A stretch of 64,000 nucleotides of DNA, taken from the NCBI GenBank assembly GCA_018826905.1, contig JAHJYC010000003.1:36963-100962 (forward strand). The letters are read 5' to 3'. Both the position numbers and the translations under genes were made by a program. Below the pieces are notes generated by a model, which was given only the letters and a program-made list of their open reading frames with translations, had not been told where the DNA came from and made no database searches. Of this stretch, positions 7,927 to 49,061 are shown one piece after another (position 1 is the first letter of the stretch; each line of letters starts with the position of its first letter). The DNA comes from Patescibacteria group bacterium (GTDB lineage: Bacteria > Patescibacteriota > Minisyncoccia > Phycocordibacterales > Phycocordibacteraceae).

Positions 7927-8197
7927 ACTTCTCTGTATTTAGTTGTTCGCACTATAGATGATTGTAATCGCACAGGGCTTTCTTAAAAAGAAATGCCCGC
8001 GGGAGCGGACAATTCAGATAGGCAAAAGGTACCATTTTAGGAGGGAAGGGTCAATAAGGGACTTGACACATATATTAATATATGTACTACTGTGTCCAGG
8101 TCCGCGTATATGGAACCTAGTTTCCTTACAACTCACACCAGTGACTTGTAGAGCATTGTTCTTTGCAGTCACATCGCCTCAAGGAGGGGCAAAACAC

Positions 8198-8614
8198 ATG
8201 CGTACCACCGGTTTCAACACCTGGATGCAGAACAAGAAGGTCCAGACGGCCGCCGTGGCCGCCTGTAGCCTGATCCTCGGCGCCGTCGGCCATGCGATCA
8301 TCACGCCCGAGCCGGTCATCGCCGCCCCGCTGCCCGTCGAGTTCCGCGTCGGTCCCGGCGAGAGTCCGGCCAAATACGTCGGGAACATGACGGCCATCGC
8401 CCTGGGCGATGCCTGCAAGCTCCCGATCTATCTGGGTCAACAGCAGATCCGCAACCATGAGATCACGGCGCAGGAGGCCCGTGGCCACATGGCCGTTACT
8501 CGGAACTTCACCGACATCGTCCAGATCACGGTCGGCGTCCATCCGGACGCCAGGTTCCAGATCGTCGGCTCGACCATCACCTGCCCCGACGGCACCGTGG
8601 TCGGCGAAGGCTGA
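8198..8614 (+). CDS. high-GC (~65-70%, GC3 ~90%) small secreted protein, 138 aa, two Cys; no recognisable family
   Basis: ATG at 8198 preceded by aaggagggg SD; signal peptide MRTTGFNTWMQNKKVQTAAVAACSLILGAVGHA; sharp GC jump relative to flanks; own terminator. Confidence 0.6.
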   Translation: MRTTGFNTWMQNKKVQTAAVAACSLILGAVGHAIITPEPVIAAPLPVEFRVGPGESPAKYVGNMTAIALGDACKLPIYLGQQQIRNHEITAQEARGHMAVTRNFTDIVQITVGVHPDARFQIVGSTITCPDGTVVGEG

Positions 8615-8640
8615 TCTGCGACTGACTGCTACAAGAAAAA

Positions 8641-8682
8641 GCGCCCCGCAACTCCGGTTGTGTGGGCGTTTTCCTTTTTCAT
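8641..8682 (+). terminator. rho-independent terminator of the high-GC cassette
   Basis: gcgccccgcaactccggttgtgtgggcgttttcctttttc. Confidence 0.65.
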
Positions 8683-8735
8683 ACACATATATAGGTACGA
8701 GTGAATTGAGGGTGCTGCGTTATACTTTCTAAAGC

Positions 8736-10490
8736 ATGCAGGTATCTGAAAGCGAACTCAAAGAATTCATTCTTGATTCCGGACTTGTTCCTCGGAAGGA
8801 TGTTGAGGCTGCAGACGAGGAGGCAAAGAAGAAGAAACAATCTCTTGGAGATATTCTTATTGCCCAAGGTGCGCTCTCCACTGATTCTTTGCGACGCATT
8901 AAAGCATATGTGCTCGGTATTCCGTTCGTTAATTTGAAGGATAGGAAGATTCCTTTGGAAGTACTCTCTCTTATTCCTGAACCAATTGCTCGCACGCACT
9001 CCATCGTTGCCTTCCGCAAAGGAGAAGGAGAACTTGAGGTGGCAATGCTAGATACAGAAGATTTGCCTGCGATTGATTCCGTGCGTAAGACAACAGGACT
9101 TAAGATTCAGGCGAGGCTTACAGACGAAGACTCTCTGAAGAATGTTCTTTTGCAGTACCAGAAGTCTTTGAAGGAAGAGTTCGGCGACCTCATTTCAACT
9201 GAAGCAGGGAAGATTAACCTTATAAAGGATGCAGTTGAGGGAGACGAGACCTCTGGAGAGGATCTTAAGAAGATGGCTGAGGATCTTCCTATTGTACGTA
9301 TTGTTGATACTTTGCTCCGACACGCCATTATTCAGAAGGCATCTGACATTCATATTGAGCCAATGGAGCACGAGGTGTTGGTGCGGTATCGTATTGACGG
9401 TGTGTTGCATGATGCTATGACCCTGCCACGCACTGCTGCAGCTGGTATTACCGCTCGTATTAAAGTGCTTGCGAACTTGAAGCTAGACGAGAAGCGTCTT
9501 CCACAAGACGGACGATTCAAGATGGAAACGGAGACGGATAAGGTCTCGTTCCGTGTGTCTATGCTCCCTACGTATTTTGGAGAGAAGATCGTTATGCGTT
9601 TGCTTCGCGAAACGGGAGAGGGCTTTACCCTTGATGTGCTCGGGTTTCATGGAGATTCCATGGAGCGTATCCATAAGGCAACAAAAGCATCAACGGGACT
9701 CATTCTTATTTCAGGACCAACAGGATCAGGAAAGACAACAACCCTCTATACCATTCTGGATATTTTAAATACTCCTGATGTGAACATAAGTACCGTTGAG
9801 GATCCAATTGAGTACCAGATGAAGCGAGTAAATCAGACACAGGTGAACCCTGCGATTGGGTTTACCTTCGCAAATGGACTCCGTTCTCTCGTTCGTCAGG
9901 ACCCAGACGTTATTATGGTAGGAGAGATTCGTGACGGTGAGACTGCGTCACTTGCGATTAACGCTGCACTTACGGGACACTTAGTGCTCTCAACCATTCA
10001 CACTAACTCAGCAGCAGGTGCAATCCCTCGTCTTATGGATATGGGGGTTGAGCCCTTTCTTCTCGTGTCTACACTTCGCGTTATTGTGGGTCAACGACTT
10101 GTGCGTAGACTGTGCGATGGAAAGGAGCAGTATTCGCTAGATGCTGAAGAGCGCGCAAAGGTTGCAGGTACTGACAAGTTTGATGCAGTACTCAAGGCAC
10201 TCACAGACGAGAAGCTTGTAAAGGCAGGAAGCGGACTTGATGACGTGCCGTTCTATAAACCAACTCCTTCAGCTCAGTGTGAGGATGGATATTCAGGACG
10301 TATTGGTATTCATGAAGTACTCTCAGTCACTCCAACCATTCGTGATTTGATTTTGCATAATGGAACAACTGACGCTATAGAGGAACAGGCACGCAAAGAG
10401 GGCATGCTTACTATGCTTGAGGATGGAATCTATAAGGCAACAAGAGGAGTTACCTCAATTGAAGAGGTATTGCGTGCTGTTACGGAGTAG
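8736..10490 (+). CDS. pilB: type IV pilus assembly ATPase PilB (GspE family)
   Basis: 584 aa; N-terminal GSPII_E_N domain; Walker A GPTGSGKTTT; Asp and His boxes; ...VGEIRD... Confidence 0.9.
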   Translation: MQVSESELKEFILDSGLVPRKDVEAADEEAKKKKQSLGDILIAQGALSTDSLRRIKAYVLGIPFVNLKDRKIPLEVLSLIPEPIARTHSIVAFRKGEGELEVAMLDTEDLPAIDSVRKTTGLKIQARLTDEDSLKNVLLQYQKSLKEEFGDLISTEAGKINLIKDAVEGDETSGEDLKKMAEDLPIVRIVDTLLRHAIIQKASDIHIEPMEHEVLVRYRIDGVLHDAMTLPRTAAAGITARIKVLANLKLDEKRLPQDGRFKMETETDKVSFRVSMLPTYFGEKIVMRLLRETGEGFTLDVLGFHGDSMERIHKATKASTGLILISGPTGSGKTTTLYTILDILNTPDVNISTVEDPIEYQMKRVNQTQVNPAIGFTFANGLRSLVRQDPDVIMVGEIRDGETASLAINAALTGHLVLSTIHTNSAAGAIPRLMDMGVEPFLLVSTLRVIVGQRLVRRLCDGKEQYSLDAEERAKVAGTDKFDAVLKALTDEKLVKAGSGLDDVPFYKPTPSAQCEDGYSGRIGIHEVLSVTPTIRDLILHNGTTDAIEEQARKEGMLTMLEDGIYKATRGVTSIEEVLRAVTE

Positions 10491-10570
10491 CTAGCCAAGC
10501 TACATTTTCATGCTATTGTGCGCTGGTCGCACGAAAGAAGCACCGGGCTTCTCGCGACAGGGAGGTACCA

Positions 10571-10927
10571 ATGAGTAAGGTGTTTGTTGGAATCCTGGTG
10601 TCCGCGTTTTTGGGCGTCATCGTCTATTCGCTCGGCGCCCACTACTTCGGCACCGCGATCATGCCGGGCGGTGAACAGCCGAGTCTGTTCGCGCCGACGC
10701 TGCAGTGGCTGGTCGCCGCGGTGGGAGCGGTCGCCATCTACATGGCGGCCGACGTGGTCGCTTCGGGCGTGCTCGCCATCATCCTGTTCGTCGTCGCCCT
10801 CGTTGTGGGCGGGACGCTGCAGGTCGGCTGGGAGTCCTGGCTCTGGGCTGCTGTCGCTGCCGCCATCGGCGCCACGCTCGGCAACCTGTTCGTTCCGGTT
10901 CAGCGCGGGACCGTGAGCGCCCAGTAG
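10571..10927 (+). CDS. high-GC small polytopic membrane protein, 118 aa (3-4 TM), unknown family
   Basis: gggaggtacc SD 5 nt before ATG; GC3 nearly all G/C; hydrophobic segments VGILVSAFLGVIVYSL, LVAAVGAVAIYMAADVVASGVLAIILFVVALVVGG, LWAAVAAAIGATLGNLFV. Confidence 0.55.
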   Translation: MSKVFVGILVSAFLGVIVYSLGAHYFGTAIMPGGEQPSLFAPTLQWLVAAVGAVAIYMAADVVASGVLAIILFVVALVVGGTLQVGWESWLWAAVAAAIGATLGNLFVPVQRGTVSAQ

Positions 10928-10971
10928 TCGCGCTTGCACTGCCGCATTTGTGACGGGACGCGGCGCATATC

Positions 10972-11013
10972 GAGCTGAGACTCTTCTTCGGAACGTCTCA
11001 GCTCTTTTCTTTT
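10972..11013 (+). terminator. rho-independent terminator of the cassette
   Basis: gagctgagactcttcttcggaacgtctcagctc hairpin + ttttctttt. Confidence 0.65.
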
Positions 11014-11032
11014 GCATGCTACGATTATGTAC

Positions 11033-12244: not shown

Positions 12245-12279
12245 ATAGAGGTGAGCGAGTGCGTTATCATACGTAGCAT

Positions 12280-13743: not shown

Positions 13744-13744
13744 T

Positions 13745-14326: not shown

Positions 14327-14331
14327 TATCT

Positions 14332-17237: not shown

Positions 17238-17258
17238 AAATTCGTATACACTAGACGT

Positions 17259-20577: not shown

Positions 20578-20615
20578 TCGCTGTTTCCTTTATCGCTATT
20601 GCTATACTGACTTGC

Positions 20616-24341: not shown

Positions 24342-24366
24342 AAAACCGCCAGCGGCGGTTTTTCCT
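24342..24366. terminator. bidirectional rho-independent terminator between the high-GC ORF and rpmB
   Basis: aaaaccgccagcggcggtttttcc. Confidence 0.65.
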
Positions 24367-25318: not shown

Positions 25319-25885
25319 ATGACACAGGATCGTAAAAGGAAGGTACTTGCGTTCTATCGCGCCCAGAAGCGCATGCCTTCTATAACGGAGCTTATGAAGC
25401 TTTTTAGTTTAGAGTCCCGCAGCGCTGCCTTCTATGCGGCAAATAAACTAATTGAGGAGGGAATTCTTGAAAAGGATTCCTCTGGGAAGCTACTCCCTGC
25501 TGCAGGACTTTTTTCAGTCCCACTTGTGGGACATATACGTGCGGGTTTCGCGGCGCCCGCAGAAGAAGAATTAGCCGATACTATTTCAATAGGAGATTTT
25601 CTTTTGGACAATCCAAATGCAAGTTACTTACTGCAGGTCTCTGGGGACTCTATGGAAGACGCAGGAATTCGCGAGGGAGACATGGTTGTCTTTGAGCGTA
25701 CACAGAATGTGAAGCCGGGAGATATTGTCGTTGCCTTAACGGAAGACGGGTACACGCTTAAATATTTACGAAAGAAAGGAAAGGTCTTTTATCTTGAAGC
25801 AGCAAACAGCGCGTACCCTGATATTCACCCAAGAGAAGGGGAGATTGTGGGGAGAGTTACCTCTACCTTTAGGAAGTACACATAA
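25319..25885 (+). CDS. lexA: LexA repressor (S24 peptidase)
   Basis: wHTH N-domain; cleavage site AG in VGHIRAGFAAP; catalytic S (SGDSM) and K (LKYLRKKGK). Confidence 0.85.
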   Translation: MTQDRKRKVLAFYRAQKRMPSITELMKLFSLESRSAAFYAANKLIEEGILEKDSSGKLLPAAGLFSVPLVGHIRAGFAAPAEEELADTISIGDFLLDNPNASYLLQVSGDSMEDAGIREGDMVVFERTQNVKPGDIVVALTEDGYTLKYLRKKGKVFYLEAANSAYPDIHPREGEIVGRVTSTFRKYT

Positions 25886-25888
25886 CGT

Positions 25889-27157
25889 ATGGAGCGCTCT
25901 TACCCACGAGCGATACTGCATTTTGATGGTGATGCATTTTTTGCATCAGTTGAGCAAGCGAAAGACTGGCGACTAAGAGGAAAGCCTGTTGTTACAGGAG
26001 GCGAACGAGGCGCTGCCACGTCGCTTTCGTACGAGGCGAAGGCTCGCGGTATTCACCGAAGTATGCCGATGCACGAGATCAGGAGAATCTGCCCGGACGT
26101 AGTTATCGTGTCTTCTGACTACACTTCGTACTCGCTTTTTGCGCGACGGATGTATGCCATTGTGCGGGAGTATACCGATGCAGTTGAGGAGTACAGCATT
26201 GATGAATGTTTTGCTGACATAACGGGACTTGAGCAGAGTCTCGACATGTCTTACGAAGAAATCGGCAAAACAATTAAAGCGAAGTTAGAAACGAGTCTCG
26301 GTATTACGTTTGGTGTGGGACTTTCCGTTACAAAGACACTTGCAAAAGTAGCATCTAAGCACAGAAAACCTGCAGGCTTTACAACAATCCCGGTGGAGAA
26401 AATTGAGGAGTATTTAGGGCAGACTGAAATTTATGATATTTGGGGATTGGGTGGCGCCTCTGGAGGGCACCTAAGAAAGTCTGGAGTTAGTACGGCGCTT
26501 GAATATATTCAGAAGGATGAAGGATGGCTTAAAGATCACGGCATCGTAAAGCCGCAGCGAGCTACTTGGCTTGAGTTGCAAGGACACTCAGTGCTTTCGC
26601 TGGGGAGCGGTGTTCGTGCACTCCCGCACTCAGTTATGAAGACACGCACGTTCTCTCCGCCATCTATGGATAGGGAGTATGTCTTTTCTCAACTCTCAAA
26701 GAATGTGGAAGCTGCGTGTGTGAAGTTGCGGAAGGAGGGGCTCAGAGCACATGCGTTAAGTTTTTATTTAAAGACTCAGGAGTTTACATACCATGGTGTG
26801 CAGATAGATTTTCCTGTTGCCTTGTCTGAACCTTCGCAGCTACTCGCGCATATAGAGAAGAGATTTAATGAAGTATACGCAACAGAGATTTTGTATCGGG
26901 CGAGCGGGGTAACGCTGCGCTCGCTCGTACCATCTGTTGCTGTTACGCCTGATTTGTTTGGAGAGTTTAAACAGATCTCTGAAAAGCAGGAAACATTTTC
27001 AACTCTTGATGCGCTCAACAAAAAGTTTGGAAGACATACGGTTTTTCTTGCGTCTAGCATGCGCGCCCTTGGAGTTGAGGCCAGAGACACTTTTCTTCGT
27101 GCAGGACCGCAGCACAAGAAGCGGATAAATATTCCGTATCTGGGGGAAGTTACATAA
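25889..27157 (+). CDS. dinB: Y-family DNA polymerase IV
   Basis: ILHFDGDAFFASVE (catalytic D/F motif), SIDECFADITG, little-finger domain; 422 aa; 3 nt after the lexA stop. Confidence 0.85.
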   Translation: MERSYPRAILHFDGDAFFASVEQAKDWRLRGKPVVTGGERGAATSLSYEAKARGIHRSMPMHEIRRICPDVVIVSSDYTSYSLFARRMYAIVREYTDAVEEYSIDECFADITGLEQSLDMSYEEIGKTIKAKLETSLGITFGVGLSVTKTLAKVASKHRKPAGFTTIPVEKIEEYLGQTEIYDIWGLGGASGGHLRKSGVSTALEYIQKDEGWLKDHGIVKPQRATWLELQGHSVLSLGSGVRALPHSVMKTRTFSPPSMDREYVFSQLSKNVEAACVKLRKEGLRAHALSFYLKTQEFTYHGVQIDFPVALSEPSQLLAHIEKRFNEVYATEILYRASGVTLRSLVPSVAVTPDLFGEFKQISEKQETFSTLDALNKKFGRHTVFLASSMRALGVEARDTFLRAGPQHKKRINIPYLGEVT

Positions 27158-27166: not shown

Positions 27167-27436
27167 CTATCGTTGCGGGGTGCGTGATGGATGGCGCTCA
27201 TCATATTCAAGCATAAGGGCTCGTTCCAGGATTCTCCTCCCCTCAGGCGAATCGTGTGCAAAGGGAAGATCTAGCTCCTTGTATTTGGTGTGAGCGACTT
27301 TTTGAGCCTCTCTGCTGCTGAAAGAGCCTCCTTCCGCAAGTGTGAGCAGCAGGTCTGCCTGATGCTCATACAGACGGCTCAGCTTTTTGACGAGATTTTT
27401 TACGAGGGATTCCTCGTGTGGCGAAAGTGGTGCCAT
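27167..27436 (-). CDS. hypothetical small cytoplasmic protein (89 aa) with strong SD
   Basis: aaggagg SD 8 nt upstream of ATG; terminator hairpin caccccgcaacgataggggtg downstream. Confidence 0.4.
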   Translation of the reverse strand: MAPLSPHEESLVKNLVKKLSRLYEHQADLLLTLAEGGSFSSREAQKVAHTKYKELDLPFAHDSPEGRRILERALMLEYDERHPSRTPQR

Positions 27437-29009: not shown

Positions 29010-30041
29010 GTGTATAATTATCCGAATGGGAACACTCGGTCCGAAACGAGCACCAAAGACATGATAACGAATGATCTGTACTCCAAAATTCTCCTAGAAC
29101 CCGCCGAAAGGGGAGGCGATGAATTGTTTATTGTCAGCGGATATGCGTCTGCCACATTTGCAAGACGTCACTTAAAAGATTTGTCTGAACGCAAAGAAGA
29201 CACAAAAATAAACCTAATTATTGGGATGCCAAAGAATACGGTGGACCATAATGCCTATTTACAACTGCACACTGAATTTGGCAACAGGTTTCGTGGCTAC
29301 TACCTGAAGTCAACGCCACCAGTCCATAGTAAAGTGTTCACTTGGTTTAATTCAGGCAAACCTCAAGAGGCATACAGCGGTTCTGCCAACTATAGTCAGT
29401 ATGGCTTTTTTGAGGACAAGCAAAGAAACCAGATGGTTAGTGACAACTCTATAGAAATAAAAAATTTCTTTGATGATCTGCTGAGTTCATCCATATTTAT
29501 GCCGCATGCTGAGATAGATAACTCAGCAGTCTTCTACAGGGTACAGAAAGTTCATGGAAGTGTACCGGCAGGAGGCGTAGAGTGGATAGAGTTAGGGAAA
29601 ACAGTGAGAATTAGTTTCCTAGATAAAAAGGGTATGTTGCCTCCAGTTTCAGGACTGAACTGGGGACAGAGGAAAGAGAAGAGAATAAACAAAGGAACGG
29701 GTGAAGTAAAATATGTGCTACGAGAAAAGAACCAAGCGTACTTGAGTTTAAAGGGTGATGTTAGAGAAGAAGGTTTCCTTCCTAAGATGGCATATAACTT
29801 CACTTTACTAACCGATGACAACGCTTCCTTTGATTGCGTAGTTGCACAGGAGGGCAGGAAAGCAATTCATTCTACAAATGACAACAGTGAACTAGGTAGG
29901 TATTTTCGTAAAAGACTAGGGCTTGAGCCAGGAGCTTTTGTTACAGTTGAAGACTTGGAGCGATACGGAAGAACCGACTATACTTTGTCTAAAATTGACG
30001 ATGAGAACTTCCTATTGGATTTTTCCGTAAAGCCAAATTAA
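29010..30041 (+). CDS. Type II restriction endonuclease, phospholipase-D (HKD) superfamily, BfiI/NgoFVII-like, with C-terminal DNA-binding region
   Basis: DELFIVSGYAS... and HSKVFTWFNS...GSANYS correspond to BfiI TLYLISGFSN... / HAKLYG...SSGNFT (HxK...GSxN); more likely start is ATG 29060 (MITNDLY) downstream of a TGTATAAT -10 at 29011-29018; 3' end overlaps the convergent MTase by 4 nt. Confidence 0.65.
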   Translation: MYNYPNGNTRSETSTKDMITNDLYSKILLEPAERGGDELFIVSGYASATFARRHLKDLSERKEDTKINLIIGMPKNTVDHNAYLQLHTEFGNRFRGYYLKSTPPVHSKVFTWFNSGKPQEAYSGSANYSQYGFFEDKQRNQMVSDNSIEIKNFFDDLLSSSIFMPHAEIDNSAVFYRVQKVHGSVPAGGVEWIELGKTVRISFLDKKGMLPPVSGLNWGQRKEKRINKGTGEVKYVLREKNQAYLSLKGDVREEGFLPKMAYNFTLLTDDNASFDCVVAQEGRKAIHSTNDNSELGRYFRKRLGLEPGAFVTVEDLERYGRTDYTLSKIDDENFLLDFSVKPN

Positions 30042-31135
30042 AAAATATCGTTTTTAATTTCTTCAATAGAGAATTTAGAATCTACCGACGGGTAAGGGAT
30101 CCCTGCAAAAGTCTTAAGAACAGCTTCTACAATTATTTTTGCACCAAGCGGAGGTACCGCCATGCCTATTTGCTTTCTTACACTCTCCTTTGGGCCTTTA
30201 AAAATAAAATTGTCAGGGAAGCTCTGTATTCGGGCCCTTTCGCGGTTTGTAAGTGCACGTGGTTCTATCCAGTGATACACATGTGTGCCACCACCTCCGC
30301 TTCCTGTGATTGTGTAAGATGGCTTATTGGGATCAAGACGCTTATAAATTTGGCTCATCTTAGCTCCTTTGACATTAAGTCGAAGATGTTTAGGGAGACC
30401 TTCATACCACGCGTTTTCGCCGGCAGGAATATGCAAAAGACGTTCAATTACGTGAGTAGCTTGCTTAGTGTGTTCATTATTGGACACTTCTTTGGGTATT
30501 GGCGGCTTCTCAAGGGCCATCTTTGCTGTGACAGGTTTATTCTTTGTGGTTGGAGCAGGAATTCTGAACTCAAGTCCTTGGTCTTTTCTTATCCCAATAA
30601 TTACAACGCGGTGCCTTTGTTGAGGAACGCCATATTCCTCGAATTTATATAGATGAGGGTATAGATTGTATCCCTTACCTGCAGCCTGAAGATCGGTAAG
30701 AATTTTCTTAAAGGCCTCACCTCCGTTTGCGCTCTGTAGACCGCCAACATTTTCAGCAAAAAACCATAGAGGGTTATGTTCATTTATTGCTTTTACACCA
30801 TATGTATAAAGGGGACCATATTTGCCGTTAAATCCTTTCTGCTTGCCAACTAAACTGAAATCGTTGCATGGAAAACCAAAAGCCAAGGCATCAAATTTAG
30901 GGATTTTTTTGAAATCAACTTTTTCAACAGGGCCACAGAAGACTCTTTTCTGGTTACCATGATGTATGTTTAACGCGTATGTTTGGCAGGTGTCCTCATC
31001 AATATCATTGGCCCAAACTGGAACTACCTTATACACAGCATTGCCTTTTTTCACCTCTGCCATGGAGGCGCCAAGACTTAGACCGCCTGGGCCACAGAAC
31101 AGCTCGGCAAAACGGAATTCTACCTTCTTTTTCAT
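30038..31135 (-). CDS. DNA (cytosine-5)-methyltransferase
   Basis: Motif I FCGPGG, motif IV PCNDFS, motif VI ENV, C-terminal motifs; start taken at MKKKVEF. Confidence 0.9.
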   Translation of the reverse strand: MKKKVEFRFAELFCGPGGLSLGASMAEVKKGNAVYKVVPVWANDIDEDTCQTYALNIHHGNQKRVFCGPVEKVDFKKIPKFDALAFGFPCNDFSLVGKQKGFNGKYGPLYTYGVKAINEHNPLWFFAENVGGLQSANGGEAFKKILTDLQAAGKGYNLYPHLYKFEEYGVPQQRHRVVIIGIRKDQGLEFRIPAPTTKNKPVTAKMALEKPPIPKEVSNNEHTKQATHVIERLLHIPAGENAWYEGLPKHLRLNVKGAKMSQIYKRLDPNKPSYTITGSGGGGTHVYHWIEPRALTNRERARIQSFPDNFIFKGPKESVRKQIGMAVPPLGAKIIVEAVLKTFAGIPYPSVDSKFSIEEIKNDIF

Positions 31136-32239: not shown

Positions 32240-32251
32240 CAAACTAACAAG

Positions 32252-32277
32252 AGACCGCCCAACGAGGCGGTTTTTTG
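32252..32277 (+). terminator. rho-independent terminator after rpsG
   Basis: gaccgcccaacgaggcggttttttg. Confidence 0.7.
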
Positions 32278-32292
32278 ATGCCCTATGTACTA

Positions 32293-32321
32293 TTGACAAA
32301 TATGGTGTATTGTGCTATGTT
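32293..32321 (+). promoter_or_regulatory. sigma70-like promoter (TTGACA-N17-TATGTT) driving the first gene of the two-gene high-GC cassette
   Basis: tattgacaaatatggtgtattgtgctatgttgg. Confidence 0.45.
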
Positions 32322-32380
32322 GGTAAGGAAGTGCTTGCTGTTTCCATTCGTTCAACAAAGTCCTGAGGAGGGACACGACA

Positions 32381-32632
32381 ATGACCAAGACACAGACCAA
32401 AGAAGAGGTCTTCAACTTCATGAACCGTCTGGGCCTGATCATCGCCATCACGGGTGTTCTGGTGATGGTGCCCGGCGCCTATCTGACCCTCCACGTCGCC
32501 TTCTTCGGCGTCGCGGACCCGGCCGTCACCGGCGCCCTCATCTTCGGTTCCTACCTGGGTGGCGGCGCTACGCTGGCCGTCGGGCTGGCCCTCAAGGGCA
32601 TCGCCTGGGTCACCCGCTTCGGCTGGCACTGA
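32381..32632 (+). CDS. high-GC small 2-TM membrane protein (83 aa)
   Basis: gaggaggg SD; MTKTQTKEEVFNFMNRLGLIIAITGVLVMVPGAYL...; GC3 biased. Confidence 0.5.
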   Translation: MTKTQTKEEVFNFMNRLGLIIAITGVLVMVPGAYLTLHVAFFGVADPAVTGALIFGSYLGGGATLAVGLALKGIAWVTRFGWH

Positions 32633-32770
32633 CCACGTGTCTTTCTTCAAAGACACAGAACTCGGAAGAGCTCTGGACATCCTCGGCGCCGTGATCATCA
32701 TCGCCGTGGTGTCGCACCCTCTGTTCCAGGGATGGTTGGTTTCAGTCGTGAGCTGAACGAACACAAAAGG

Positions 32771-32815
32771 GCTCGGACCGCAGCGATATGCGTGGTCCGG
32801 GCTCTTTCTCTTTAC
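32771..32815 (+). terminator. internal terminator between the two cassette genes
   Basis: gctcggaccgcagcgatatgcgtggtccgggc 9-bp stem + tctttctcttt. Confidence 0.5.
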
Positions 32816-32889
32816 ATATATGGGTTCTGGGAGTACTTTTTCAGTTCAACTGAAGTCCTTTCAGTTGGAAGTTCAAGGAGGGAAGAGAG

Positions 32890-33099
32890 ATGTCGCTTAA
32901 GAAGATGCTTGGTGTTCCGGTGCTGATTTCGGCCGGGCTCGCGCTCATCATCGCTGCCACCAATACGATCGCACATGCAGGTGGCGCGAAGACGCCCGAA
33001 GACCAGCTGGTGATCGCCTTCGGTCTCGGCGTCGGGATCTGTATCCTTTTCGGTGCTGGTTTTCTGGCCGCCTGGCCGAAGAATCCTCAGCAGCCCTGA
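32890..33099 (+). CDS. high-GC small 2-TM membrane / secreted protein (69 aa)
   Basis: aaggagggaagagag SD; MSLKKMLGVPVLISAGLALIIAATNTIAHAGG... Confidence 0.5.
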   Translation: MSLKKMLGVPVLISAGLALIIAATNTIAHAGGAKTPEDQLVIAFGLGVGICILFGAGFLAAWPKNPQQP

Positions 33100-33117
33100 C
33101 CAACACAGAACATTCAA

Positions 33118-33150
33118 GCCCGAGCGCAAAGCGCCCGGGCCTTTTTCTTG
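33118..33150 (+). terminator. rho-independent terminator of the cassette
   Basis: gcccgagcgcaaagcgcccgggcctttttctt. Confidence 0.65.
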
Positions 33151-33218
33151 CCTTTTCCTGCTCCTAAACGTATCTTATAGCTAACGCCCTGGCGGCTTTT
33201 ATTTTATTTATACCTACT

Positions 33219-35415: not shown

Positions 35416-36058
35416 GCTACGGTGTACCTATATGACCAAACGAACTAAAGCTTTCCTTGCTGTTTTTGTAGTAGTTGCCCTTGGTGCGTACGGATATTTG
35501 TATTGGTGGGCAAATACTCCAGAGCACGGAGTCTTTGATTCTATCCCTATCGTGCGTGAGGTGTCGGACTCTCTTTCAAAGGGAGTAGTGCGTACTCCAG
35601 TTGTTGAGGAAGAGGCAGTAGTAGAAGAAGAGGAGAGTGTTCCTGTTGATACACAGACCTATAAGACATATGAGAACACTACGCAGAAGTTCAGCTTGGA
35701 CTATCCGGACACTTGGATTCCAACCGTTACGAACATAGACGGTGTTATGACGCTCTGTATCACTGATACTGAAGCAACGGGCCCTTGCATGCTTACCGTT
35801 GAGAGCGAAGCAGAGGGTGTGAATGTGAGCGAGGAGAAGACTTATATTGCGCTTAAGGCTGAGTACCGCGCTGGCAAGCTTACTGAGCTTGAGCGCGCTG
35901 TTGGCGGAGAGATGGGACGATTGCTCCGTATTTCAGGAGAACCAACAGTGAGTCGTGTGGTGGTATTCAGTCACGAAGGACGTGTCTACACTGTTTCAGC
36001 CCTTGAAGGACAGGAAACTGTATTTGATCGGGCAACTGAGTCCTTTAGATTCCAGTAA
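35414..36058 (+). CDS. hypothetical membrane-anchored protein (likely start ATG 35432, MTKRTKAFLAVF...)
   Basis: Single N-terminal TM, acidic linker EEEAVVEEEE, beta-rich C-domain; unusual position between fusA and tuf. Confidence 0.5.
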   Translation: MLRCTYMTKRTKAFLAVFVVVALGAYGYLYWWANTPEHGVFDSIPIVREVSDSLSKGVVRTPVVEEEAVVEEEESVPVDTQTYKTYENTTQKFSLDYPDTWIPTVTNIDGVMTLCITDTEATGPCMLTVESEAEGVNVSEEKTYIALKAEYRAGKLTELERAVGGEMGRLLRISGEPTVSRVVVFSHEGRVYTVSALEGQETVFDRATESFRFQ

Positions 36059-38013: not shown

Positions 38014-39120
38014 ATGAATCCATTCCAAGCACAGTTCCCGTTGAGCCCTAGGAAGTTCTGGAAAAAATTTCTTCCGGTCATAATTCCCAGCATTCTTTTC
38101 AGTGCGTTTGTGGGCGTATTTTTCGCATTCTTTTTGCCATTCTTTCATGGAAATCTAGAGCTCTCTGCTGAAAGCATGATTAGGACGAGTATACTTCTTA
38201 CCGTCGGGCTCTCTATTTTAGTGTTGGCCCTCTATGCTTGGTACTTTAAGGTGTACATTCGCACTTATTCGTATGAAGGAGGAGATAACTTCATTCGAAT
38301 AAAGAAGGGCGTATTCGCACCACGTGAAATCCATGTGCAGTACCAAAAGATTCAGGACGTCTATGTGGATCAGGATATTCTAGATCGTATTTTGGGTATT
38401 TATGACGTACATATCTCAAGTGCGACTATGTCTTCAGGAATGGAAGCGCACATTGATGGTGTGAATAAAGATGTAGCGGACGGACTACGGGAGTTCTTTC
38501 TCAATAAGGTCCAACGTGCAACCGTGGGCTATGTAGACCCTGCAGCGCCAGCTATGGCGGAGCAGAATCAGGCCGCTGCCCCAGTTCAGCTCTCTGAAGA
38601 GATATCAAGCGCGGCGTATCCAATCCGTCCTATGTGGATGGTGGTAAGCGTGCTCGGTACAATATTTATGAGTTTGATCATAGGTCTCTTTACGGCAGGC
38701 TACGCAGTAGCGAAGACGTCGGATGATGGCGATGGCCTTCCGTTCCTCGGCACATTTCTCGTTTTTACCGCAGGATACTTCGTGTTCCACTTCATCGGGA
38801 TACTTCTTTGGAAGAGTAACTATAGTTTCCAGCTTACTCCTGACTATGTGCTCTACCGCACCGGTATACTTAGTAAGTCAGAGCGCCATCTTCCATACCG
38901 CACAATCCAGGACGTAAGTATCTCCCAGTCGTTCTTTGATCGCATATTTGGTCTCTATAATGTCGTAATTGAGAACGCAGCGCAGGTCGCCATGACTAAA
39001 GGCCGCCTTTCTAATGCGAACATAAAGCTTGTTGGTCTTGCTAAGGATCAAGCGACCCACATAACTGAGACACTGAAACCGATCATACTCTCTAAGACGA
39101 GTATCCAGACCGGCATATAA
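38014..39120 (+). CDS. membrane protein with two bacterial PH (YdbS/YdbT-like, DUF304) repeats
   Basis: Two repeats each with TM hairpin + DRILGIYDVHISSATMSSG / DRIFGLYNVVIENAAQ motifs. Confidence 0.55.
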   Translation: MNPFQAQFPLSPRKFWKKFLPVIIPSILFSAFVGVFFAFFLPFFHGNLELSAESMIRTSILLTVGLSILVLALYAWYFKVYIRTYSYEGGDNFIRIKKGVFAPREIHVQYQKIQDVYVDQDILDRILGIYDVHISSATMSSGMEAHIDGVNKDVADGLREFFLNKVQRATVGYVDPAAPAMAEQNQAAAPVQLSEEISSAAYPIRPMWMVVSVLGTIFMSLIIGLFTAGYAVAKTSDDGDGLPFLGTFLVFTAGYFVFHFIGILLWKSNYSFQLTPDYVLYRTGILSKSERHLPYRTIQDVSISQSFFDRIFGLYNVVIENAAQVAMTKGRLSNANIKLVGLAKDQATHITETLKPIILSKTSIQTGI

Positions 39121-39129
39121 TTAGACTGT

Positions 39130-39507
39130 ATGCAGGACTCCCTCAATTCTCTCTGGAACACCGTGGGTGAATGGGGCACATCATCTGAAGGGTTTGCAAT
39201 CATAATTGGCTGTACTGTTCTTCTCGTTGCGTATGCGCATTTTAAGAACGCACGTACATGGAAGGCCCAGAACTCCGGAGTGCGCGCGCGCTTCTCAAAG
39301 AGAAACGCCTTCAAGTTACTCATGTCAGGAATAGTCTTATTTGTATCAAGTATTGGGGGGTTGCTGTTCGTCCAACGTCTACATTCAGTTCTCAACTCAA
39401 ATACTCCAGTTCCGCTATCCGGACATGTGTTGCTTTTAGGAGGGCTCGGCTTTGTCGGTTTAATGTTGGTCGGTTTCAGCCTCTGGCTTTTGGCGCGATC
39501 TGAATAG
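39130..39507 (+). CDS. small 3-TM membrane protein (hypothetical)
   Basis: 125 aa with hydrophobic helices. Confidence 0.4.
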   Translation: MQDSLNSLWNTVGEWGTSSEGFAIIIGCTVLLVAYAHFKNARTWKAQNSGVRARFSKRNAFKLLMSGIVLFVSSIGGLLFVQRLHSVLNSNTPVPLSGHVLLLGGLGFVGLMLVGFSLWLLARSE

Positions 39508-39570
39508 TGCCTGCCCAAAGGGTAGTTTTATTATTTCTTTAGAGGTTAGTTCAGTCGTATACTTACTTGT

Positions 39571-40251
39571 ATGAAAACGATTTTTATCTCCGGGGGGAAC
39601 CAAGGTCTCGGAAGAGCTCTGGCAGAGAAATTCGCAGGAGAGCACAATGTAGTTATTCTTGCGCGTAACGAAGACAAGGGCAGACAAGCAGCTGAAGAGG
39701 TGGGGTGTGACTTAGTCGTTGCTGATGTTTCAGATTACACTCAAATTCAGGCTGCAGTTGATTCTGTTATTCAGAAATACGGCGCAATAGACTGCTTGAT
39801 AAACAATGCTGGTCTCTGGATACAAGGGGCTCTGGAAGACAATGACCCAGAACAGGTAAGCGCTGCTATGAATGTGAATGCAACAGCGACCATTCTTTTG
39901 ACCCGTGCGTGTCTGCCGTACATGAAAAAGGCGCAGAAGGGAAGAATAATTAACGTAATTTCTCAATCAGGGTTTTATGGAAAAGGGGAGCGAAGTGTGT
40001 ACACCGCTTCAAAATGGGCGATTGCTGGCTTTACTAAGTCTCTTCAAATGGAACTAACGGGTACCGCAGTCACGGTTTGTGGGTTTTATCCAGGCTCTAT
40101 GAAGACGGAGTTTTTTGCTAACGCTGGAGTGGAGAAGGACAGTTCCAAGTTCATGGAGTTATCGGAAGTTGTCCGGGCAGTTGAGTTTATAGTAGATACA
40201 CCAGACCATCTTTCTATCCCTGAATTAGGAATCAAGCCCGCCTATTACTAA
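39571..40251 (+). CDS. SDR-family oxidoreductase
   Basis: TGGNQGLG Rossmann motif, NNAG, YTASKWA (YxxxK). Confidence 0.8.
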   Translation: MKTIFISGGNQGLGRALAEKFAGEHNVVILARNEDKGRQAAEEVGCDLVVADVSDYTQIQAAVDSVIQKYGAIDCLINNAGLWIQGALEDNDPEQVSAAMNVNATATILLTRACLPYMKKAQKGRIINVISQSGFYGKGERSVYTASKWAIAGFTKSLQMELTGTAVTVCGFYPGSMKTEFFANAGVEKDSSKFMELSEVVRAVEFIVDTPDHLSIPELGIKPAYY

Positions 40252-42982: not shown

Positions 42983-42992
42983 GACACAAAGA

Positions 42993-43025: not shown

Positions 43026-43073
43026 TGTATAGAGAGAGTAGGGTGATGCAGAAGACACGCCAGGAGGTAAGTG

Positions 43074-43307
43074 ATGCACATTTTTCGTTCGCTCCGCCTG
43101 AGAAAGTGGCGAGAACAACAACGGTTGAGGCGAGAGCTCAGGAAGACAGTAAGCTATCTGAAACATCTCGCCTCTATGTATGAGGAAACTAAAGGAAACG
43201 ACGATCAATCAAAGATCCTCCTTTGGGTAATTAAGGCCTGGTACGCACGAAAATGGGAATTGATGAGAAAGATCAAGCCCCCTTTGCGTTCCAGGTACAA
43301 GACTTAA
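43074..43307 (+). CDS. hypothetical small basic protein (77 aa) with perfect SD
   Basis: caggaggtaagtgATG; R/K-rich (pI high); followed by hairpin gccagctatagtacgctggttcttttt. Confidence 0.35.
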   Translation: MHIFRSLRLRKWREQQRLRRELRKTVSYLKHLASMYEETKGNDDQSKILLWVIKAWYARKWELMRKIKPPLRSRYKT

Positions 43308-43332
43308 GCCAGCTATAGTACGCTGGTTCTTT

Positions 43333-44172
43333 TTATGGAACGTACTTCTCGTTCAGAACTTCTGAAAGCTGTGCGAGCGGAATAGATACACTTTGTGGCC
43401 CAAGCGCATAGGGACCAACTTGGTAGGGAGGGAACAGGAAGACTAGAGTGTTTCCTTCAACAACAAAGGTCTGAAAGTTAGCGGTCTCTGGGGCTGTGCC
43501 TTGCTGCATGTAGGAGACATCTGCATCTTCTCCAAGTTTCTTTTGAAGCTCAAAGCGTGCAATCTCAGAGATGCGCTTTAGATAGTCTGTGCGGGGCTTG
43601 AATAAAGAGGCGAGTGAAAGCTCTGCGCCAGTTTCTGCATCAAAAACGAAGGTCCTATAGAAAGAGTTCGGGTGTGCACCAAACGTGTCTGTATAGAGCG
43701 TATAGGCGTATGAGACGGTATGTGGAGCGAGTACTTCGTTGTATTCAATAGCGAGCGCCTGCTTCCTCCCGTCCTCGTATCCCATCATTTGAATATCCTC
43801 TTTTGTGAGGCTTGCGAAGTTACCTTCACGCTTGAACTGTTGAATGGTGTCTTCAACAAAGCTCTTCATAGTGTCTATAGCCTCTACGTCTGCAGTGGTT
43901 CCTGCAGAGACTGAGAGGGGTGTCTCAGACGGGTACGCAGCCTCAATATCGTAATACTGCGCATGTTCACGAATAGTCTGTGGTTCTGTAGGAGGAACAG
44001 GTACCGTCTCTTCTACGAGAGGACTATAAGGCTCTGGTGCCTGATGGGTGGCCATGTACCAAAGAGAAAGTCCAAGGACTACCGCTATGAGAGCACCAGC
44101 ACCGAGAAGTTCCAGCTTCTGAACACGAGTGAGAGAGTGAATGTTCCACATATAGGAAGAAGTATAGCCCAT
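43333..44172 (-). CDS. membrane-anchored DUF3298/DUF4163 (RsiV/PdaC-like) domain protein
   Basis: N-terminal TM; ...YAYTLYTDTFGAHPNSFYRTFVFD... characteristic of DUF3298. Confidence 0.55.
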   Translation of the reverse strand: MGYTSSYMWNIHSLTRVQKLELLGAGALIAVVLGLSLWYMATHQAPEPYSPLVEETVPVPPTEPQTIREHAQYYDIEAAYPSETPLSVSAGTTADVEAIDTMKSFVEDTIQQFKREGNFASLTKEDIQMMGYEDGRKQALAIEYNEVLAPHTVSYAYTLYTDTFGAHPNSFYRTFVFDAETGAELSLASLFKPRTDYLKRISEIARFELQKKLGEDADVSYMQQGTAPETANFQTFVVEGNTLVFLFPPYQVGPYALGPQSVSIPLAQLSEVLNEKYVP

Positions 44173-44181
44173 AAATGAAAA

Positions 44182-44207
44182 GGGCCGGATGCGTGTGCGT
44201 CCGGCCC
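44182..44207 (-). terminator. terminator hairpin immediately upstream of (abutting) the DUF3298 gene start, terminating the small acidic peptide gene
   Basis: gggccggatgcgtgtgcgtccggccc with U-run on the minus transcript. Confidence 0.55.
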
Positions 44208-44225
44208 CTGGAAAGATCTGGTGCT

Positions 44226-44372
44226 TTACCAGAAGATACTGTCAGGATCGTAGCCGGGGTCAGAGTTCCAACTCATCATTGAATCAATGGCCCCATCATC
44301 AATCTCGGGGTCTTCCCCAAGATCCTGACTGTCAGAATCGGTGGCTGGAAAGCCACCCAGCGTAGTTGTCAT
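44226..44372 (-). CDS. high-GC small acidic peptide (48 aa)
   Basis: Not in the ORF track (<60 aa); found by translating the minus strand: gagggaggaatagcATG then MTTTLGGFPATDSDSQDLGEDPEIDDGAIDSMMSWNSDPGYDPDSIFW*. Confidence 0.4.
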   Translation of the reverse strand: MTTTLGGFPATDSDSQDLGEDPEIDDGAIDSMMSWNSDPGYDPDSIFW

Positions 44373-44413
44373 GCTATTCCTCCCTCTCAACTACTTTTTC
44401 ACCCTATCATGAA

Positions 44414-44440
44414 AAAAGCTATGCGCGAGCATAGCTTGTG
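44414..44440 (-). terminator. terminator between the two small acidic peptide genes
   Basis: agctatgcgcgagcatagct perfect hairpin + U-run on the minus transcript. Confidence 0.55.
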
Positions 44441-44449
44441 TTGGCTATT

Positions 44450-44620
44450 CTAGCCAAAAGAGCCCACCAGCCGGCGCACCATAGCATCAGCGTCCTGAAA
44501 GAGGCCTCCATAGATGGCGAGCGCGCCTTCACCGAATTCTTCAGTGATTTCAGCGATTGCAGACGTTACATCTGCGTGCGGGACGGGCTCCTCGGCCTGT
44601 CCACGGGTATCTGTAGTCAT
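44450..44620 (-). CDS. high-GC small acidic protein (56 aa)
   Basis: gagggaggaagtATG SD; MTTDTRGQAEEPVPHADVTSAIAEITEEFGEGALAIYGGLFQDADAMVRRLVGSFG. Confidence 0.45.
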   Translation of the reverse strand: MTTDTRGQAEEPVPHADVTSAIAEITEEFGEGALAIYGGLFQDADAMVRRLVGSFG

Positions 44621-44737
44621 ACTTCCTCCCTCGTTGAGCACCAAAGTACCCTATCATGGAGCCCGGTAGTTTGACACTTCTCTCTGTTTCATATAGATTC
44701 TATCTATCCCGCCTGGCGGGCTTTCCATTGTCTATCT

Positions 44738-45085: not shown

Positions 45086-45087
45086 TC

Positions 45088-45483: not shown

Positions 45484-45485
45484 CC

Positions 45486-46181: not shown

Positions 46182-46185
46182 ACCT

Positions 46186-46605: not shown

Positions 46606-46606
46606 C

Positions 46607-46801: not shown

Positions 46802-46806
46802 CTACT

Positions 46807-47049: not shown

Positions 47050-47056
47050 CTAATTT

Positions 47057-47434: not shown

Positions 47435-47445
47435 CCTCTCTGTAT

Positions 47446-48335: not shown

Positions 48336-48354
48336 AGAAGAGGATGTTGCAAAA

Positions 48355-48377
48355 GAGCCCGGAAACGGGCTCTTTTG
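48355..48377 (+). terminator. rho-independent terminator after rplE
   Basis: gagcccggaaacgggctcttttg. Confidence 0.6.
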
Positions 48378-48402
48378 ACATATAGAAACAGGGTTGTAGT
48401 AT
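48375..48402 (+). promoter_or_regulatory. sigma70-like promoter TTGACA-N16-TAGTAT driving the high-GC lipoprotein cassette
   Basis: ttgacatatagaaacagggttgtagtat. Confidence 0.4.
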
Positions 48403-48452
48403 CAAAATACTAAGTTTGGTAGTTGTATCAGGCTTTTAAGAAGGAGGATGAA

Positions 48453-48944
48453 GTGAGAAAGATGTTCTTTGCGGGGGCTCTTGTCCTTGCACTTTCCGCC
48501 TGCGACAGGAACACGGACAACAATCTGCGGTACGAAGTTTCCGTGGACTACCGTGAGCCTGTGGGCGCCGTGGTCAGGGAGCTCGGCCTTAACACGGAGG
48601 AAGTGCCTGTGTACGAGGTCATGAACCGCAGCAGGCATGGAGTCGGCGAAGAGCTTCGCTGGATGCGCGTGGTTCGGCATCGGGAGCTGAAGGACACCTA
48701 CAGCCCCAAAAACGGGTTTCACCCGGCCGATACGCGCGAAATGCTGGCGTTCTACGCCACGCACCCCCAGGCAGTGCCTTTCAAAGGGCTCTGCGCTCCG
48801 GGCGAGCAACTGCCGCTTGGGGAAGGGGTGATCGGCGTGCCGGTTATCACGCGCGCAGGCAATCTCGGCATTTCCGCCCATGGCTGCAAGAAGCCGGGCC
48901 GTCGCGTGCTCGTGGTGCGAGATTTCGGCCGCACGCAGCCCTGA
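48453..48944 (+). CDS. high-GC lipoprotein (~163 aa), unknown family
   Basis: aaggagg SD 5 nt before GTG 48453 (alternative ATG 48462); lipobox LVLALSAC; GC3 nearly all G/C; own terminator. Confidence 0.55.
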   Translation: MRKMFFAGALVLALSACDRNTDNNLRYEVSVDYREPVGAVVRELGLNTEEVPVYEVMNRSRHGVGEELRWMRVVRHRELKDTYSPKNGFHPADTREMLAFYATHPQAVPFKGLCAPGEQLPLGEGVIGVPVITRAGNLGISAHGCKKPGRRVLVVRDFGRTQP

Positions 48945-48950
48945 ATATAC

Positions 48951-48990
48951 GGTCCCCATGTCTTCATTGGCGCGGGGACCATTTTCTTTG
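48951..48990 (+). terminator. terminator of the lipoprotein cassette
   Basis: ggtccccatgtcttcattggcgcggggacc + attttcttt. Confidence 0.55.
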
Positions 48991-49061
48991 GGGTCAATGT
49001 TTGACAGCCTATATCCTTACTGATAGATTACATGAACGGCTCCCCGGAGCTATTTTTTCTT

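Follow-up and report, generated by a model that had tools for sequence, protein, structure and literature searches.

Small GC-rich gene cassettes between core genes of a Patescibacteria chromosome and their probable exchange among related species

The 64,000-nt stretch of contig JAHJYC010000003.1 analyzed here (the window) belongs to a metagenome-assembled genome (MAG) of an uncultured groundwater Paceibacteria/Kaiserbacteria-like member of the Patescibacteria, a group also called the candidate phyla radiation (CPR). It raises the question of how small, GC-rich open reading frames (ORFs) came to stand between highly conserved core genes, some of them within ribosomal-protein clusters, when the GC content of the window is only 0.485. 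We consider it probable that the six GC-rich ORFs, which were named P1, P2, P3, P4, P5 and P8, are genuine chromosomal accessory genes that are swapped between related species by recombination-driven turnover of cassettes in fixed slots.

Six GC-rich genes and their slots

A preliminary description of this DNA had listed eight small ORFs as high-GC mini-cassettes with almost exclusively G or C at the third codon position. All eight ORFs are present where it placed them, and six of them have a high GC content at third positions (GC3 0.69-0.87) relative to the backbone ORFs (GC3 0.35-0.57). These are P1 (8198-8614; GC 0.65, GC3 0.87), P2 (10571-10927; GC 0.66, GC3 0.86), P3 (24065-24337; GC 0.57, GC3 0.74), P4 (32381-32632; GC 0.64, GC3 0.87), P5 (32890-33099; GC 0.60, GC3 0.69) and P8 (48453-48944; GC 0.63, GC3 0.75), all on the plus strand. 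The other two, on the minus strand at 44226-44372 and 44450-44620, are ordinary in this respect (GC3 0.53 and 0.56), and the wording "almost exclusively" suits three of the ORFs and overstates the others. That the cassettes are compositionally foreign to the host core was borne out by their relative synonymous codon usage (RSCU), which was uncorrelated with that of window genes (r = -0.04 against the translation genes and r = -0.29 against the core genes). For leucine the ratio of CTG to CTC was 28:18 in the window cassettes versus 63:170 in the window core (Fisher p = 2e-5), and for alanine the ratio of GCC to GCG was 43:14 versus 78:179 (Fisher p = 4e-10). The six ORFs are real genes, and the ratios of non-synonymous to synonymous substitution rates (dN/dS) of about 0.2-0.5 between cassette orthologues indicate protein-coding constraint, that is, purifying selection. 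No match above the Pfam cut-offs was obtained for any of the eight listed proteins. Hydropathy suggests that five of the six cassette products belong to the envelope, as anchored or secreted proteins, as a lipoprotein or as small membrane proteins of polytopic type.

A scan with PilB, covering a single genome for each GTDB species, found 80 relatives (64-86% PilB identity), which carry the labels Candidatus Kaiserbacteria, Paceibacterota or Parcubacteria and have a locus GC of 0.33-0.66 and a core GC3 of 0.24-0.91. Ordinary core genes of the sister genomes are about 84% identical to those of the window at the nucleotide level, NusA and PilB are 94-95% identical in amino acids, and the core dS is 1.0-2.3 (1.2-2.3 for ordinary core genes in the comparison with the sister species). 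The str operon of the sister was reached via the P5 cluster; exact-protein look-ups with RpsG and RpsL returned the same population only. The genomic locations given in the preliminary description, namely the nusA/pilB, pilB/pilC, MBL(comEC-C)/rpmB, rpsG/fusA and rplE/rpsN spacers, agreed with the Pfam tables.

The divergent nusA|pilB spacer (slot 1; 7927-8735, plus strand) holds the P1 cassette. An alignment of this spacer from six species displayed a conserved order of elements, consisting of a hairpin GCCCGCGGGAGCGGAC, a -35 box TTGAC, a leader with ATCTTTGC, a terminator GCGTTTTC, the element CATACACATATATAGGTACG and the pilB -10 box. In the window this framework comprises the hairpin at 7994-8011, the -35 box TTGACA at 8063-8068, a ~110-nt leader in which ATCTTTGC is invariant, and a terminator ending in GCGTTTTCC near 8650-8690, followed by the pilB -10 box TATACT. 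The 138-aa P1 product has a hydrophobic anchor or signal at its N-terminus, besides a Cys-containing domain of ~90 aa, and its ORF is preceded by the Shine-Dalgarno (SD) motif AAGGAGG. Same-site homologues show 89% identity in the sister species, 54-55% in L007 and L005, 39% in L104 and 29% in L106, those of L104 and L106 being detected by profile search only. The P1 family occupies the nusA|pilB slot of six species whose core pilB is 79-95% identical. The dS between P1 and its sister copy was 0.17, versus 1.08 for nusA and 1.03 for pilB. The content of the slot varies: the spacer is 140-260 bp long without an ORF in many of the 80 relatives, and elsewhere it extends to 0.4-2.6 kb and contains genes unrelated to P1, for a TetR-like regulator, HIT-like proteins, a Cys-rich secreted protein or a lipoprotein.

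The matrix of P1 identities contradicts that of the core, so that the history of the alleles is incongruent with that of their hosts. L005 and L106 are 93% identical in PilB and only 32% in P1, and the window and L104 are likewise 93% identical in PilB and 39% in P1, whereas L005 and L007, at 82% in PilB, share 66% in P1. In close pairs of relatives, identity was lost only from the -35 box to the terminator. Since the divergence is confined to this stretch, the unit of replacement is the cassette, with its break points in homologous sequence.

Two further features of this locus were observed. The hairpin GCCCGCGGGAGCGGAC, which has its T-run on the nusA strand and lies between the divergent nusA and P1, is invariant in the six species while the rest of the spacer has diverged, and may serve as an insulating terminator or have a regulatory role. 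In addition, a domain of ~80 aa in P1 forms the C-terminal domain of uncharacterised proteins of 200-370 aa with a conserved N-terminal module (the metagenomic proteins P0022-P0029 and L108 2641-3255), with the pattern ..GEG..YV...TAI.LAE...LPLY.G..Q......IT..EAR......TD.VQVTV.V..GD.F.L. A Pfam search with ten distant relatives of the domain gave no match, and a metagenome scan with the P1 profile returned one contig only, which was already known.

Sharing of alleles between species was also seen in the rpsG|fusA spacer (slot 4; 32240-33218, plus strand), which was resolved by a three-way alignment with the GenBank record and the sister. It contains, in order, the rpsG terminator (~32250-32275), a promoter (32293-32321), P4, a GC-rich tail of ~140 nt, a terminator (~32770-32812), the P5 leader with its SD, P5, a second terminator (~33118-33150) and the fusA promoter region. 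P5 (69 aa, two hydrophobic segments) is 97% identical to its sister counterpart, at a dS of 0.08 versus 0.60 for rpsG and 0.70 for fusA. The window is identical to GCA_018826595.1 over the 35 kb compared, except for a tract of 115 bp in the 5' part of P5 (32868-32985, plus strand) with 11 single-nucleotide differences and a 2-bp indel, and all 11 differences as well as the indel equal the allele of the sister species; the comparison that contains the tract spans 20.4 kb without any other difference. On the sequence comparison, this is a textbook short tract of inter-species recombination. The window P5 protein matches the deposited KJ894_01440 exactly, and the window probably stems from a different MAG of this population; owing to the 2-bp difference, the GenBank annotation calls a spurious extended ORF of 121 aa across the terminator. 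The low dS of P1 and P5, the P5 tract, the incongruence of P1 and a tandem duplicate of the P2 unit in one sister (below) together show that cassettes move horizontally between species and that their history is not that of the backbone.

P4, in the same slot, encodes 83 aa with two hydrophobic segments and is an orphan seen in this population only; at its position the sister has a non-homologous ORF of 71 aa with two predicted transmembrane segments (GC3 0.57) behind the same GAGGAGGGA. The GC-rich ~140 nt between the P4 stop and the next terminator (32633-32765) contains a hydrophobic frame (..LDILGAVIIIAVVSHPLFQGWLVSVVS*) whose sole in-frame start is a GTG at 32559, inside P4, with none past the P4 stop; a third small ORF, either decayed or unconventional, may be present here.

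The pilB|pilC spacer (slot 2; 10491-11032, plus strand) contains the P2 cassette, which consists of a leader with GGAGGT, the ORF (118 aa, four hydrophobic segments), a conserved hairpin ACTGCCGCAT..GACGCGGCGCA and a terminator GAGCTGAGAC..GTCTCAGCTCTTTTC. In the sister L003 (10536-11593) the entire unit, that is promoter, leader, ORF, conserved hairpin and terminator, occurs as a tandem duplicate in which the non-coding parts are alike and the ORFs only 37% identical (GC3 0.93 and 0.76). The window P2 is 68% identical to one sister copy (dS 0.46, dN 0.215) and 37% identical to the second. In many relatives the pilB|pilC gap measures 1-30 nt, and in the closest ones it is ~500 bp with a small polytopic membrane protein. 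The empty junctions obtained by removing cassettes in silico thus exist in nature, both here and in the spacers of 140-260 nt between nusA and pilB.

The remaining two cassettes have same-site homologues as well. P3 (90 aa, basic and soluble) has the weak SD GGAG and a bidirectional terminator (24342-24362) in common with rpmB; its sister homologue lies at the same site and on the same strand with 53% identity and a saturated dS, and the GC3 of 0.74 in the window and 0.67 in the sister compares with 0.41-0.48 for the neighbours. In that sister (L103, 1184-1471) GenBank calls an ORF of 95 aa antisense to the P3 homologue, the real gene being at 1199-1474 on the plus strand behind the SD GGAGGGA. 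The rplE|rpsN spacer (slot 6; 48336-49061, plus strand) carries a promoter at 48375-48402, the SD AAGGAGG, P8, a terminator-like hairpin at 48960-48979 and the rpsN promoter at 49001-49029, an arrangement also found in three sister genomes. P8 (163 aa) is a putative lipoprotein with the lipobox LSAC and a weak LPAM_1 match, and its same-site orthologues are 90% and 73% identical, with a dS similar to or above that of the flanks. An AlphaFold2 model of P8 built from a 3-sequence alignment was unusable (pLDDT 43).

Cassette architecture and the route of exchange

The units are self-contained, each with its own promoter, SD leader, ORF and terminator, as had been proposed. The promoters named earlier were recovered by the scanner (TTGACA-N17-TATGTT at 32293, TTGACA-N16-TAGTAT at 48375 and, before rpsN, TTGACA-N17-TAGATT at 49001), and terminator hairpins were found after the units. 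A canonical SD had been claimed for each small ORF. This applies to five of the six outliers, which have matches of 6-7 nt to AAGGAGGT (AAGGAGG, GGAGGT or AGGAGG), and not to P3, which has GGAG only. The companion claim, that the backbone mostly lacks an SD, was confirmed, since a match of at least 5 nt precedes only 2 of 57 backbone genes with verified starts, a count that omits ten gene starts between 33.2 and 41.7 kb (2-nt offset from an indel). Backbone genes that open transcription units have instead a TAnnnT box, often with an upstream TG, 6-9 nt 5' of the ATG, for example at 8716-8735 (pilB), 11012-11032 (pilC), 17240-17258, 20597-20615 and 55490-55507. Because of this spacing, the first genes of backbone units look leaderless. 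Internal backbone genes likewise have no SD, and the same pattern is seen in relatives. Judged from these motifs, the host appears to employ largely leaderless or coupled translation and to keep the SD for leadered accessory genes. An SD also precedes the slot genes of relatives, which makes it a trait of leadered accessory genes in the clade and no sign of an actinobacterial origin. Scans of the whole window with Rfam and for tRNAs gave no matches, so neither a riboswitch nor a tRNA integration site accounts for the leaders or the slots. A further small SD-led gene was noted at 27167-27436 on the minus strand, an ORF of 89 aa with ordinary GC3 (0.51) and a perfect AAGGAGG. It is far less diverged from the sister (dS 0.53) than its surroundings (DinB and CAP, 1.9).

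Known classes of mobile element were considered as vehicles. No integrase or transposase Pfam family was present among the called genes of window 1-42.2 kb, and no terminal inverted repeats of the transposon, insertion-sequence or MITE type, no common ends and no conserved target-site duplications were identified at the cassette ends. Integron hallmarks were equally absent, as there was no attC-like common imperfect inverted repeat and no integrase in the Pfam tables. IMG/VR scans with P1, P2 and P8 found no relatives, and the neighbours of the cassettes are nusA, pilB/pilC, ribosomal-protein genes and fusA rather than a phage or prophage cluster. Comparison of the islands revealed neither a DNA repeat nor a protein similarity between them, and paralogy or common mobile-element ends were rejected on this basis.

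Short direct repeats around three of the units had been put forward as possible traces of insertion. The sequence ACACATATAT does occur in the window only at 8066 and 8683 (0.06 expected), but even the sister species has no conserved upstream copy. CATGCTA (8 occurrences versus 8.6 expected) and TTTGACA (6 versus 11.5 expected) are no commoner than chance would make them, and both overlap -10 and -35 boxes belonging to neighbouring promoters. The flanking repeats are therefore promoter motifs or chance, not target-site duplications. The notion of an unrecognised insertion mechanism is likewise not supported, as the replacement boundaries lie in the conserved framework, which is what homologous recombination leads one to expect.

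The preliminary description had offered three explanations, namely a recent insertion of cargo at many sites from a high-GC donor, a chimeric assembly and deliberate engineering. Sharp compositional boundaries in a metagenome-assembled genome could in principle arise by the mis-joining of high-GC reads from another organism. However, the same cassette junctions were found in the NCBI MAGs GCA_018826595.1, GCA_018821225.1 and GCA_018828265.1 and also in independent Logan assemblies of the runs SRR10598216, -218, -219, -220 and -221, and this recurrence across assemblies and samples excludes a chimera for practical purposes. Other species, sampled in other studies, moreover have orthologous cassettes within this framework, and the ORFs are surrounded by conserved promoters, leaders and terminators of native appearance. 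We accordingly give chimerism or contamination hardly any chance. The modular promoter, ribosome-binding site, ORF and terminator layout is what an engineered construct would look like, yet the MAGs are environmental and the lineage is uncultured, diverged natural alleles (29-90% identity) under purifying selection occupy the same sites in several species, and the ORFs match no Pfam family above cut-off. Engineering is the least credible of all the readings considered, with a probability close to nil.

A donor outside the phylum, for instance an actinobacterial or proteobacterial one, whose cargo was recently inserted at many sites by an unrecognised site-specific mechanism leaving short target duplications, deserves more attention. 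Codon usage rich in CTG, GCC and GGC is generic for high-GC bacteria other than CPR, and that of the cassettes has this character and differs from the clade's own; P4 is confined to one population, and the 10-nt repeat around P1 is unique in the window. Against such a donor, P1, P2, P3, P5 and P8 all have same-site homologues in the sister, four of them (P1, P2, P3 and P8) diverged and P5 near-identical, which does not accord with one recent multi-site insertion. Homologues were found only in the clade's syntenic slots and among unannotated metagenomic proteins, and an SD leads slot genes across the clade. The repeats are unconserved or are promoter boxes at chance frequency, and the islands have no common end sequences. 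We regard this reading as improbable.

The reading that we prefer is that the slots are hypervariable intergenic sites between highly conserved core genes, each with a promoter, SD leader, ORF and terminator unit that would be replaced via homologous recombination in the conserved flanks and framework. The window contains genes with Pfam matches to ComEC (PF03772) and to PilB/PilC (T2SSE, T2SSF). Because ComEC and a type IV pilus machine are encoded, natural transformation is the most plausible route of DNA uptake. Saccharibacteria have been shown to be naturally competent, with homologous recombination (PMC10633639), and the horizontal transfer detected into Patescibacteria comes mostly from other Patescibacteria (PMC12455944). 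Recombination in the flanks would allow whole cassettes to be gained, lost, duplicated and swapped among related species independently of the core.

Source of the GC-rich codon usage

Why the cassettes are GC-rich is a separate matter. Under the proposed turnover, the CTG/GCC-rich codon usage would be a property of a circulating cassette pool and not of the host chromosome, and it is for this reason that the cassettes would stand out in a 48% GC genome; the pool may have originated in a donor lineage that is unsampled. Other readings were considered and set aside. Translational selection is rejected, as tuf, rpsG and fusA reach a GC3 of only 0.50-0.57 and cassette usage is uncorrelated with that of the translation genes. 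A real gene on the antisense strand is not indicated either, for the antisense ORFs are rich in R, D and G, as is typical of chance ORFs in high-GC DNA, and have lower GC3. Selected mRNA structure within the ORFs is not supported, folding of the ORFs by themselves being ordinary (z = -0.85 to -1.8 versus permutation of synonymous codons). The strongly negative z of whole cassette transcripts is probably due to the terminator hairpins, which the ORF-only folds omit. High-GC relatives as simple donors fit in part, in that cassette RSCU correlates with their core genes at r = 0.76 and the third-base spectrum is almost equal, but the Leu and Ala choices are reversed. CTC is preferred in the core genes of nearly all of the 80 relatives, at any GC3, and GCG in those of most, including every host of P1.

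Several observations weigh against a pool whose composition is merely imported. In each of its six hosts the P1 family shows the CTG/GCC preference and a GC3 of 0.87-0.96, exceeding a core GC3 that ranges from 0.43 to 0.81, so that it is an outlier even in high-GC hosts, and no host was found with core codon usage like that of the cassettes. P3 has kept its GC3 of 0.74 and 0.67 in spite of saturated dS. In P8, 8 GC-to-AT changes were counted versus 7 in the reverse direction, where neutral, host-like amelioration would give ~3.7:1 by our estimate, although the counts are very small. The balance in P8 suggests that the composition is actively maintained in addition to being imported. At four-fold degenerate sites under conserved residues, P1 alleles differ by C/G exchanges at 20-45% of sites and by exchanges between A/T and G/C at 0-14%, and such near-saturated divergence without A or T implies long evolution and is hard to fit with repeated residence in low-GC hosts. 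It also has to be considered that the relatives were compared over flanks of 4-10 kb only. The same cassettes at the same sites with ameliorated composition, which had been named as the mark of old native genes, were found in part: the cassettes and the sites are the same, the composition is not ameliorated. As such, "recent arrival, not yet ameliorated" does not fit every unit. One way to reconcile these data with the circulating pool is that the alleles could evolve mostly in an unsampled GC-rich reservoir lineage with the same flanks and be imported repeatedly, against which stands the fact that no sampled host matches the signature.

Alternatively, the GC-richness may be intrinsic, the cassettes being long-resident genes of the clade whose third positions are driven to G or C in every host by a force local to the gene. 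This is compatible with cassette exchange and differs from our preferred explanation only on the cause of the GC-richness. The likeliest such force is GC-biased gene conversion (gBGC), because recombination at the cassette loci far exceeds that elsewhere in the genome; another candidate is selection favouring G/C-ending codons in envelope-protein mRNAs that have a leader and depend on an SD. Besides the syntenic P1 outliers, the predominance of C/G exchanges, the retained GC3 of P3 and the balanced flux in P8, this reading gains from the demonstrable recombination of cassette loci between species and from a distant P1-family member of 204 aa in a 39% GC genome, whose GC3 is 0.58 versus 0.26-0.36 in most of its neighbours (0.44 in one). 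It gains also from the fact that genes which recombine have a higher GC3 in bacteria (PMC4450053). Conversely, conversion tracts must end in the flanks, yet no consistent rise of GC3 was seen in 40-codon bins of the core genes abutting the cassettes, and the leaders and promoters have ordinary GC. The increment of +0.4 in GC3 looks far above the bacterial effect suggested in that study, a comparison made without an effect size extracted from it. Gene conversion also predicts no reversal among G/C-ending codons (CTG/GCC versus CTC/GCG), the ORF-only folding is ordinary, polarised changes in P1 were biased toward AT (7 GC-to-AT versus 2 AT-to-GC, again very small counts) and several slot genes of relatives have host-like codon usage. 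We therefore hold it possible, though rather unlikely, that a gene-local force, most plausibly very strong gBGC, keeps hyper-recombining cassette genes at a GC3 of ~0.9 in every Patescibacteria host across this range of core composition. Whichever the cause, what remains genuinely odd is that the cassette pool persistently keeps its GC3 and codon signature irrespective of the host.

Neighbouring islands and comparison with known systems

Other gaps between core genes vary too. The rplB|rpsS gap (43071-44737) had been counted among the high-GC insertions; it contains a plus-strand ORF of 78 aa and, on the minus strand, a DUF3298 gene (43333-44172) with the ORFs of 48 aa (44226-44372) and 56 aa (44450-44620). 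All of these have ordinary GC3 (0.46-0.56), and the two small ORFs belong to a DUF3298 minus-strand unit conserved in sister genomes, so that this gap holds no high-GC cassette. Among sisters the same gap holds a 2OG-Fe(II) oxygenase in one and a different ORF of 90 aa in another. The rpsJ|rplC gap has bPH_2, a 125-aa ORF and a short-chain dehydrogenase (SDR) in the window, a 109-aa ORF and SDR in one sister, and ORFs of 56 and 166 aa in another; the content of the rpsG|fusA gap also differs between sisters. In the window, the genes that interrupt the S10 cluster are of native composition, namely bPH_2 (368 aa), the 125-aa ORF and the dehydrogenase between rpsJ and rplC (38014-40251) and an ORF of 208 aa between fusA and tuf (35432-36058). 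Directly 5' of rpsL, at 29061-31135, lie an NgoFVII-type restriction endonuclease and a C5 DNA methyltransferase (GC ~0.41, GC3 0.36-0.40), which occur in the window lineage only; the sister has a 139-aa ORF there. Sisters L003 (292-1507) and L004 (2050-3265) have a Band_7 (SPFH) gene and a 110-aa gene between the HU and PG-binding genes that are not in the window lineage. The GC3 of this island is 0.81 and 0.75, and the CTG/GCC preference is cassette-like in the Band_7 gene and not in the 110-aa gene. Finally, at 25319-27157 the gene for a DinB-type (IMS) translesion polymerase comes directly after that for a LexA-like S24 peptidase, and the pair looks like a minimal SOS module beside competence genes.

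If the preferred explanation is right, a streamlined genome of the episymbiont type diversifies via self-expressing single-gene envelope cassettes that species exchange with one another at fixed slots, including some within ribosomal-protein clusters usually regarded as inviolate phylogenetic markers. A warning follows for CPR MAGs, whose ribosomal-protein and pilus loci may contain recombinant inserts that are miscalled by annotation pipelines. A GC3 near 0.9 and a codon signature of their own across hosts make a simple recent transfer without amelioration insufficient and render the cassettes a test case for gBGC or another composition-maintaining force. If such a gene-local force were real, this would be, to our knowledge, by far the most extreme recombination-driven base composition in a bacterium and a natural system for the direct measurement of bacterial gBGC.

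Several known systems resemble the cassettes in part. The pilin islands of Pseudomonas aeruginosa, next to pilB, hold allele groups of pilA with accessory genes and are exchanged horizontally. The window is similar in having divergent alleles of small envelope proteins beside pilB/pilC with a distribution incongruent with the core; in contrast, P1 and P2 have no prepilin leader (no G/FTLIE-type motif), and the same behaviour is seen in ribosomal-protein gaps unrelated to pili. Phage morons are autonomous promoter-ORF-terminator units of atypical base composition between two genes of a conserved cluster. The cassettes match this description of self-contained, atypical units within conserved clusters, but they lie in chromosomal core operons with no phage genes nearby, and P1, P2 and P8 have no relatives in IMG/VR. 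Integron gene cassettes are small, usually carry one gene and often encode proteins of unknown function, and in these respects the present units are alike; unlike integron cassettes, they have no attC-like common repeat, IntI or array, each has its own promoter, and the replacement boundaries fall in homologous framework sequence.

In mammals, genes at recombination hotspots show runaway GC3. A parallel with gBGC at hotspots (Lassalle et al. 2015, PMC4450053) is that high GC3 is confined to unusually recombining loci whatever the genomic background. As far as that source allows a comparison, with no effect size extracted from it, the magnitude here looks far larger, and there is no spill-over into the flanks and a reversed preference among G/C-ending codons.

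The closest correspondence is with hotspots of horizontal gene transfer without mobile elements, in which recombination takes place at the core genes on either side and which are enriched in transformable bacteria (2017, PMC5635113). As in those hotspots, gene content varies between the same core genes, there is no integrase or transposase, a recombination signal is present at or through the slot, and the host encodes DNA-uptake machinery. The window departs from them in that its cassettes are single-gene units of 0.3-0.9 kb with their own promoter, leader and terminator, that several slots are inside the str, S10 and spc ribosomal-protein clusters, and that the GC3 of one cassette family is extreme in all hosts examined. 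The best-supported mechanism, turnover of cassettes by recombination in fixed slots between conserved core genes, is a known kind of genome dynamics, which is here unusually miniaturised, self-expressing and situated inside ribosomal-protein clusters of the CPR.

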